Virus genome (UHGV): UHGV-0175408
DNA length: 21,394 nt
DNA from: a virus
Strand: one strand, 5' to 3'
The position numbers and the translations under genes were made by a program. Positions 14,637 to 15,086 of this stretch are shown here, piece by piece. Positions within the stretch are counted from its first letter, which is position 1. Every line of letters starts with the position of its first letter. The notes under the pieces were generated by a model, which worked only from the letters and a program-made list of their open reading frames with translations, searched no databases and had not been told where the DNA came from.

Positions 14637-14749
14637 CTCCTTACGGATAAATTCTTTTAAGATTCCGCACATTCGTACTTGTTGGTGCCGAACCTTCCTT
14701 CAGTTATCTTTTTGATCCCTATAAACAAAAGAACCAAAGGAGGTTCGAC

Positions 14750-15002
14750 ATGTCACAAAAAAAACGATATTCCTGTTTTTCCTATTACAGCCTGGCAGGC
14801 TGGACCATTGCCCGGTTATGGTGCGCTAGCATTAAAATTCCAGTACCTGACTTCCCCTATGCAACCACTGGATTCAGCACAAGAAACTCAGTTCTTCGCG
14901 CTTACTCCCGAAATGACTGAGACTTTGATCTCCGATCTGCGCCGACATATTGAGACGCTGAAAAAATCCGGTATTCACAGCCCACAAGAAAACAGGCATT
15001 AA
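14750..15002 (+). CDS. Moron gene on the opposite strand with frame disruption at an A8 tract (SD-ATG frame and long ORF differ by one base)
   Basis: Strong AAAGGAGG site and ATG at 14750, then an A8 run (14757..14764); the ATG frame stops after 58 codons (14926), while the adjacent frame (track ORF 14679..15002) gives a protein-like product ending just before a terminator. Confidence 0.3.
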
Positions 15003-15032
15003 TCGAAAAAACGGTTGCCGCATAATTTCTTG

Positions 15033-15058
15033 AAAAGCGTCGCGCACTGGCGCTTTTC
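15033..15058 (+). terminator. Rho-independent terminator after the moron ORF
   Basis: Stem aaaagcgtc/ggcgctttt (one G-U pair) with 7-nt loop, T-rich 3' flank. Confidence 0.4.
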
Positions 15059-15086
15059 ATTTCTCTACGATCAACAAGCATGCACC

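Follow-up and report, generated by a model that had tools for sequence, protein, structure and literature searches.

The BssS-family gene that lies between the cro-position regulator gene and rha in this prophage sequence is, in all likelihood, disrupted by an inherited frameshift that became fixed in one lineage at a homopolymer just behind its start codon, resulting in a null or strongly reduced (hypomorphic) allele of a prophage moron. The sequence analysed is a stretch of 21,394 nucleotides, here called the window, in which the homopolymer consists of eight A's (A8), one more than in the intact allele (A7). The original prediction for this locus offered slipped-strand phase variation, programmed frameshifting and homopolymer sequencing error as mechanisms; a fixed inherited frameshift, which was not among these three, is the simplest reading of the observations below. 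The features on which the analysis is based are the following, with coordinates of the window.

13923-14630, minus strand: gene for a Rha family regulator (PF09669), divergent from the bssS-like gene.
14685-14749, plus strand: upstream extension exploited by annotation, with the starts GTG 14685, TTG 14712 and ATA 14721.
14720-14725, plus strand: TATAAA, a weak putative -10 element and the best candidate of the promoter scan.
14736-14743, plus strand: Shine-Dalgarno sequence AAAGGAGG of the bssS-like gene, read directly from the sequence, kept in relatives and followed by a 6-nt spacer before the ATG.
14750-14752, plus strand: ATG, the genuine start codon of the bssS-family gene according to homologue N-termini, the PGAP starts of A7 alleles and the boundary of homology between cargos.
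14757-14764, plus strand: A8 homopolymer, separated from the ATG by TCAC; the intact A7 allele reads CAA AAA AAC (Q-K-N), and the additional A throws the reading out of frame at codon 5.
14750-14920, plus strand: out-of-frame ORF of 56 codons from the Shine-Dalgarno-preceded ATG (MSQKK followed by 51 missense residues and TGA).
14763-15002, plus strand: rest of the BssS-family coding frame, N5 to H83 and TAA, +1 relative to the ATG.
15031-15067, plus strand: intrinsic terminator with a 12-bp stem, a 5-nt loop and a T-rich tail.
15087-15329, minus strand: gene for an HTH regulator of the YdaS/PF15943 type in the Cro position, convergent with the bssS-like gene.
15449-16141, plus strand: gene for an S24/LexA-type prophage repressor in the cI position, codirectional with the bssS-like gene.

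Direct reading confirms the predicted arrangement of a strong ribosome-binding site and an ATG at 14750 with an A8 run closely behind. The frame that starts at this ATG is indeed short, ending at the TGA at 14918-14920, although it comprises 56 codons and not 58. No stop interrupts the +1 frame between 14679 and the TAA at 15000-15002, where it closes, as had been anticipated, shortly 5' of the intrinsic terminator, the 12-bp hairpin of which (15031-15059) is followed by TTTCTCT; the surrounding 76 nt fold at -18.2 kcal/mol (z = -2.25). With the cro-like gene and rha as its neighbours, the locus is also the separately terminated, opposite-strand insert that was described. A strict scan for a sigma-70 promoter at the bssS-like gene found none; the best candidate, TTCAGT-15-TATAAA, matches at 8/12 positions, with a poor -35 element (TTCAGT) and a spacer of 15 nt. 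Since the gene is located on the strand of the repressor gene, it is probably expressed in the lysogen. An Rfam scan of positions 14600-15100 gave no RNA family match. A 5-bp hairpin, GAACC-AAAGGA-GGTTC (14731-14746), overlaps the bssS Shine-Dalgarno sequence; on the minus strand a T-rich run follows it, which gives a terminator-like score in the direction from cro to rha (the position of tR1 in lambda), but the hairpin is weak and its fold is not significant.

Runs of eight A's or T's occur five times in the 21.4-kb window, against approximately 0.7 expected from base composition. The A8 run itself is therefore statistically not unusual for the DNA of the window; what sets it apart is that it occupies codons 3-5 and breaks the reading frame. 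The other four 8-nt runs are located at 2327-2334, 5052-5059, 16182-16189 and 20486-20493. At 2327-2334 the window has A8 where the ETEC assemblies have A7. The T8 run at 16182-16189 lies 3' of a GC-rich hairpin directly downstream of the repressor gene, where it resembles the repressor terminator, and is T8 in every locus with a matching flank pattern.

Removing one A from the tract (A7) fuses the ATG to the long frame and yields a protein of 83 amino acids, of which MSQKNDIPVFPITAWQAGPLPGYGALALK is an example peptide. This frame-restored protein matches the Pfam family BssS (PF13991) with 56.1 bits against a cut-off of 27 (E = 4.1e-15), as well as PHROG 10846, which has no assigned function (E = 4e-51). 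It aligns to positions 1-83 of the 84 positions of the NCBIfam BssS model and remains below the threshold of the BssS equivalog NF008958 (23.7 bits, cut-off 125). Because this equivalog threshold is missed, the restored protein is to be seen as a distant phage-borne paralogue and not as BssS proper. Among 5.8 billion proteins searched, there were 16 diverged homologues, with 61-94% identity, in Salmonella, Klebsiella, Atlantibacter, Kluyvera, Tatumella and E. coli. All 16 are exactly 83 amino acids long, begin with MS[QKN]..DIPVFP at the equivalent ATG, and use the frame that follows the tract, from which it follows that the ATG at 14750 is the true start and the post-tract frame the true coding frame, both of which had been suspected. 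PGAP also places the start of A7 alleles at the ATG equivalent to 14750. The 56-residue peptide of the ATG frame has no Pfam match; I discarded it as a functional product, since it has no family match and no intact relative initiates in its frame.

In the phages collection, a protein search revealed only four phages with a homologue, and the gene in Salmonella phage F1055 occupies a different slot; a near-identity DNA search of the locus in the same collection gave no match. Among solved structures, no credible relative came up in a sequence search, and in the literature on BssS and prophages I found nothing on the PHROG 10846-type subfamily or its A tract. Chromosomal BssS is a biofilm regulator with a deletion phenotype, according to Domka et al. 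(2006) as cited in PMC2408971. By analogy, the intact prophage protein might affect signalling and biofilm formation, which is only a lead.

Both tract lengths occur in related prophages, so that a one-base change does join the two frames in nature, as the original prediction supposed, and its proposed comparison of A7 with A8 in relatives turns out positive. Thirteen complete E. coli genomes carry a bssS-type locus. OkiPb01695 and cq9 have A7 and an intact 83-residue gene from the equivalent ATG, and further A7 alleles with an intact protein are present on four IMG/VR contigs and one metagenome contig. ETEC1732 and UMNF18 have A8, the same as the window. In total the A8 allele is found in seven complete genomes, from several laboratories and countries, and also on one IMG/VR contig and one metagenome contig. 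Its exact 56-residue product turns up in 236 blocks of the collection and on 170 contigs, among them Logan contigs and contigs of short-read assemblies, with names in the SPAdes and MEGAHIT styles, and the long-frame products of the A8 allele are recorded on 143 and 268 contigs. No complete genome in the collection is identical to the window (best match 98.2%), which makes the window a further independent observation of A8. Variable-gap pattern scans of representative-genome and metagenome contigs returned mostly chance matches; the true copies among them were two metagenome loci, with none in the representative genomes.

A8 is thus a real allele and not a sequencing error. Sequencing is prone to error in homopolymers, and public assemblies of this prophage do in some cases differ there, but the recurrence of the same A8 in the seven complete genomes, in the IMG/VR and metagenome contigs and in contigs of the 236 collection blocks makes it extremely unlikely that the true sequence of the window is A7. 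With the same tract in hundreds of independent assemblies, the suggestion of a homopolymer sequencing error is rejected for the window.

The distribution of the A8 allele over the loci that were read is far from arbitrary. Their gene bodies are identical to that of the window, with no more than a single mismatch over the 90 nt before the gene, while the A7 loci of other prophages show 2-5 differences in the gene body, including the two residues that define the LASPM/MAETL haplotype. Across 3 kb of the A8 loci, the block 14600-16350, containing bssS, cro and cI, is nearly identical, whereas the ash/rha side diverges by up to 5%, with the differences clustered as in mosaic recombination. In the loci read, A8 is tied to one gene haplotype and to one cro/cI immunity block. 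A nearly identical bssS-cro-cI block combined with a mosaic ash/rha side argues for identity by descent, and for persistence of the allele through several recombination events; the pattern fits a single insertion inherited together with one immunity module, rather than a freely flipping tract. A8 is common in sequenced E. coli; that a null allele accounts for so much of the total of recorded copies would be compatible with hitch-hiking in clones that have been sequenced heavily. The product record also contains, on 15 contigs, an A7 product with the haplotype of the window itself (P0024), which may represent ancestral copies, genuine revertants or errors of assembly. A8 products are also recorded on two haplotypes that are each one SNP away (P0037 on one contig, P0038 on three contigs), which could represent independent expansions of the tract or point mutations on an A8 background.

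Two complete assemblies seem at first sight to show the tract in the act of changing. ETEC1734 and ETEC1738 have A7 with flanks identical to those of A8 strains, and the comparison of ETEC1734 with ETEC1732, otherwise the same strain, is the only near-isogenic contrast between A7 and A8 that I found. Over 50 kb, however, these two assemblies differ by six 1-nt homopolymer indels and zero SNPs. ETEC1738, the prophage of which differs from both in the late region, shares with ETEC1734 a second contraction (scored, like the first, relative to ETEC1732 and the window), from A7 to A6 at 21175-21181, which breaks the integrase gene and is labelled 'frameshifted' by PGAP. The most economical explanation for A7 in both is under-calling of homopolymers in assembly. 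I therefore dropped the two as a case of near-isogenic switching, given the homopolymer-only differences of ETEC1734 from ETEC1732 and the integrase-breaking contraction in both. A literature search on the ETEC17xx genomes found no paper on their sequencing method. Among the loci read, no trustworthy near-isogenic variation of the tract was found. That two long complete assemblies 'repair' bssS, apparently through under-calling, means that assembly noise can mimic phase variation, a lesson for the interpretation of homopolymer differences among long-read assemblies.

The tract is also absent from more distant members of the family. At its position, Salmonella phage F1055 has ATGTCTCAGAAGGAT (ATG TCT CAG AAG GAT) and a Klebsiella prophage copy has GTGAGCAAACAAAAT (GTG AGC AAA CAA AAT), neither with a run of A's, and the run stems from the codon choice CAA AAA AAC for Q-K-N in the E. 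coli variant. Other copies of the gene carry lesions elsewhere. One product (P0021, on 5 contigs) has a frameshift after residue 28, caused by a contraction from A4 to A3. In locus L088 (1150-1344), a deletion has removed rha together with the 5' third of the gene, and in locus L089 (1097-1344), from Klebsiella, a 1-nt deletion lies in a C/T-rich stretch; in both only a C-terminal ORF of 47 residues is annotated. The absence of the tract in diverged homologues and these independent lesions together point to the ordinary decay of a dispensable accessory gene.

The most attractive alternative is that the A tract is a contingency repeat, which toggles the BssS-like protein reversibly and at a useful rate between ON (A7) and OFF (A8), but I consider this unlikely. 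In classical contingency genes the repeat tract is placed early in the coding region, as it is here, and a frame-setting repeat within the 5' coding region is certainly present, as A8 occupies codons 3-5 and A7 restores the frame. Both tract lengths occur in nature, an A7 product is recorded on the same haplotype (the 15 contigs of P0024), and A7 in ETEC1734 and ETEC1738 is flanked by sequence identical to that of A8 strains. Indel rates in E. coli also increase exponentially with run length (PMC8510543). Seven or eight A's are, however, short for a contingency tract in an enterobacterium proficient in mismatch repair. Also against a contingency repeat stands that tract length follows haplotype and immunity module in the loci read, that the near-isogenic contrast sits among homopolymer-only assembly differences of which one breaks the integrase gene, that the tract is not kept in the homologues of F1055 and Klebsiella, and that the window has four other 8-nt A/T runs. 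The originally proposed slipped-strand phase variation thus finds no support, and there is no evidence for a tuned or regulated switch. A more elaborate version, in which a reversible low-frequency switch, possibly with leaky +1 decoding, varies a prophage BssS-like regulator, and in which the A7 contigs of P0024 are true revertants, is improbable to the same degree. Many of the lysogens are porcine or bovine E. coli. If true, a switch of this kind would make a lysogenic-conversion gene of E. coli an example of homopolymer-based phase variation.

The remaining alternatives concern the decoding of the A8 allele, and annotation has provided one of them. In ETEC1732 and UMNF18, PGAP flags no frameshift and assigns a 'bssS family protein' of 105 amino acids (WP_235718092.1) from GTG 14685, while other pipelines give versions of 96, 93, 77, 72 and 47 amino acids from TTG, ATA and internal starts. 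It is conceivable that the expressed form is such an N-terminally extended protein of 105 (or 96 or 93) residues, starting at GTG 14685, TTG 14712 or ATA 14721, as the long frame reaches back to 14679 without a stop codon, ORFs of this kind are called by PGAP and by other pipelines, and, with no confident promoter mapped, these starts could fall within the transcript. I nevertheless regard this as quite improbable. No purine-rich Shine-Dalgarno sequence precedes any of the three starts, the extension reads through the conserved Shine-Dalgarno sequence and ATG, no diverged homologue has an N-terminal extension, all being 83 residues long, and the disagreement of the pipelines on the start is typical of annotation rescue. 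The extension 14685-14749 is probably not translated, and I regard the 105-, 96-, 93-, 77-, 72- and 47-residue forms as annotation artefacts of one frameshifted gene. The frameshift is thereby hidden by RefSeq and other pipelines, and a single broken gene is present in protein databases in several artefactual forms, named as 'bssS family' or hypothetical proteins.

Full-length protein could also be made from A8 by recoding, either through a +1 ribosomal frameshift on AAA-AAA-C or through RNA polymerase dropping one A, as in a 'pseudo-pseudogene', and this I think is very unlikely. A +1 slip of tRNA-Lys from AAA 14759-14761 to AAA 14760-14762 would restore exactly MSQKND... In the tssM gene of Citrobacter rodentium, a homopolymer frameshift, in a longer run, is reportedly rescued by transcriptional slippage. 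Such slippage rescues homopolymer frameshifts in longer runs (PMC1088944), but the same work, by Baranov et al. (2005), treats A8 as non-slippery and A9 as slippery, and its criterion is a run of at least nine A/T, against eight in the window. In a systematic reporter study, E. coli RNA polymerase showed no detectable deletion slippage on the poly(A) runs examined, of up to 8 (PMC6260861). The two-frame layout is not conserved either, as all 16 diverged homologues are single ORFs, and local structure is not significant (z = -1.1). Shifts to +1 are favoured by a short Shine-Dalgarno spacing, as in prfB; the Shine-Dalgarno sequence of initiation is not so placed here, as it lies 15 nt upstream of the shift codon. 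Programmed frameshifting, the last of the mechanisms originally proposed, is contradicted by diverged homologues that are single ORFs of 83 residues and that do not have the A tract. Leaky expression from A8 is conceivable, but with a layout that is not conserved, no significant structure and a polymerase that is non-slippery on A8, any rescue is likely to be very small and incidental.

An inherited frameshift accounts for these observations as follows. The gene is an 83-residue BssS-family moron of a lambdoid E. coli prophage, with its own Shine-Dalgarno sequence, ATG and terminator, on the strand of the repressor. In the window it carries a one-base insertion from A7 to A8, likely by replication slippage in the run of codons 3-5 (CAA AAA AAC). 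Ribosomes would still load at the strong Shine-Dalgarno sequence and ATG, read MSQKK and 51 missense codons, and stop at 14918-14920, so that the BssS domain would not be produced from A8, rare slippage aside. This single mutation would then have been passed on together with the cro/cI immunity block of the prophage. If the allele is simply null, it means only that lysogens with A8 can do without this BssS-like gene.

The location of the gene has a further aspect, as the slot between cro and rha behaves like a cargo cassette. The 551-nt query matched 96 E. coli genomes, of which 13 have the bssS-type locus, and the partial matches among those listed (9/9, H22-H30) all cover query positions 1-153 only, i.e. 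exactly through the ATG. I compared the slot over positions 14600-14752 and 15083-15150 of the window, 1501-2081 of locus L007 and 1801-2244 of locus L091. In 88-3493 and CFSAN029787, near-identical sequence through the ATG is followed by an unrelated ORF of 97 amino acids (PHROG 4753, no Pfam match), and in 88-3493 homology returns at the 3' end of the cro-like gene. The flanks of the slot are conserved in both strains. One Shine-Dalgarno sequence and ATG thus serve different cargos, and a cargo-exchange slot of this kind, with the same initiation signals for unrelated genes, may be of interest to studies of moron turnover.

On the other side of rha, the minus strand shows matches at the Rfam gathering level to C4 antisense RNA (13575-13662, 84 bits) and isrK (13687-13763, 55 bits). 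Both lie inside the ORF of an 'ash family protein' (13158-13820), the C-terminal half of which is weakly Rha-like, which suggests a control module of antisense RNA and antirepressor of the P1/P7 or Gifsy type downstream of rha. Other accessory cargo of the window includes an ompC-like porin gene (7622-8719, plus strand), on the opposite strand beside the Q antiterminator gene, and a DNA methyltransferase gene and two tRNA genes (listed intervals 5774-6820 and 5442-5592, both minus strand).

Compared with known systems, the protein resembles chromosomal BssS (YceP) of E. coli K-12 in belonging to PF13991, in its length of 83-84 amino acids and in its full-length alignment, but the gene in the window is prophage-borne and frameshifted, and its product fails the equivalog model. 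The homopolymer contingency genes of Haemophilus, Neisseria and Campylobacter share with it a run just after the start, a frame toggled by one base and the existence of both lengths, whereas the run here is short (7 or 8), is not kept in orthologues and co-segregates with haplotype in the loci read. A parallel to the lesion is formed by the 'pseudo-pseudogenes' of Baranov and co-workers (PMC1088944), in which lengthening of an A run likewise frameshifts a gene that is intact in other strains. However, in those cases A8 became A9 and rescue is by insertion slippage, while in the window A7 became A8, and rescue would need the deletion of one base in the mRNA.

Lambdoid prophage morons are independently transcribed accessory genes, and the bssS-like gene has in common with them an orientation opposite to the early operon, its own terminator and replacement by other genes at the same slot. 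The promoter scans gave no confident candidate for it, and it differs from such morons in the boundary of the exchange, which falls exactly at the start codon, with the Shine-Dalgarno sequence and ATG common to the cargos.
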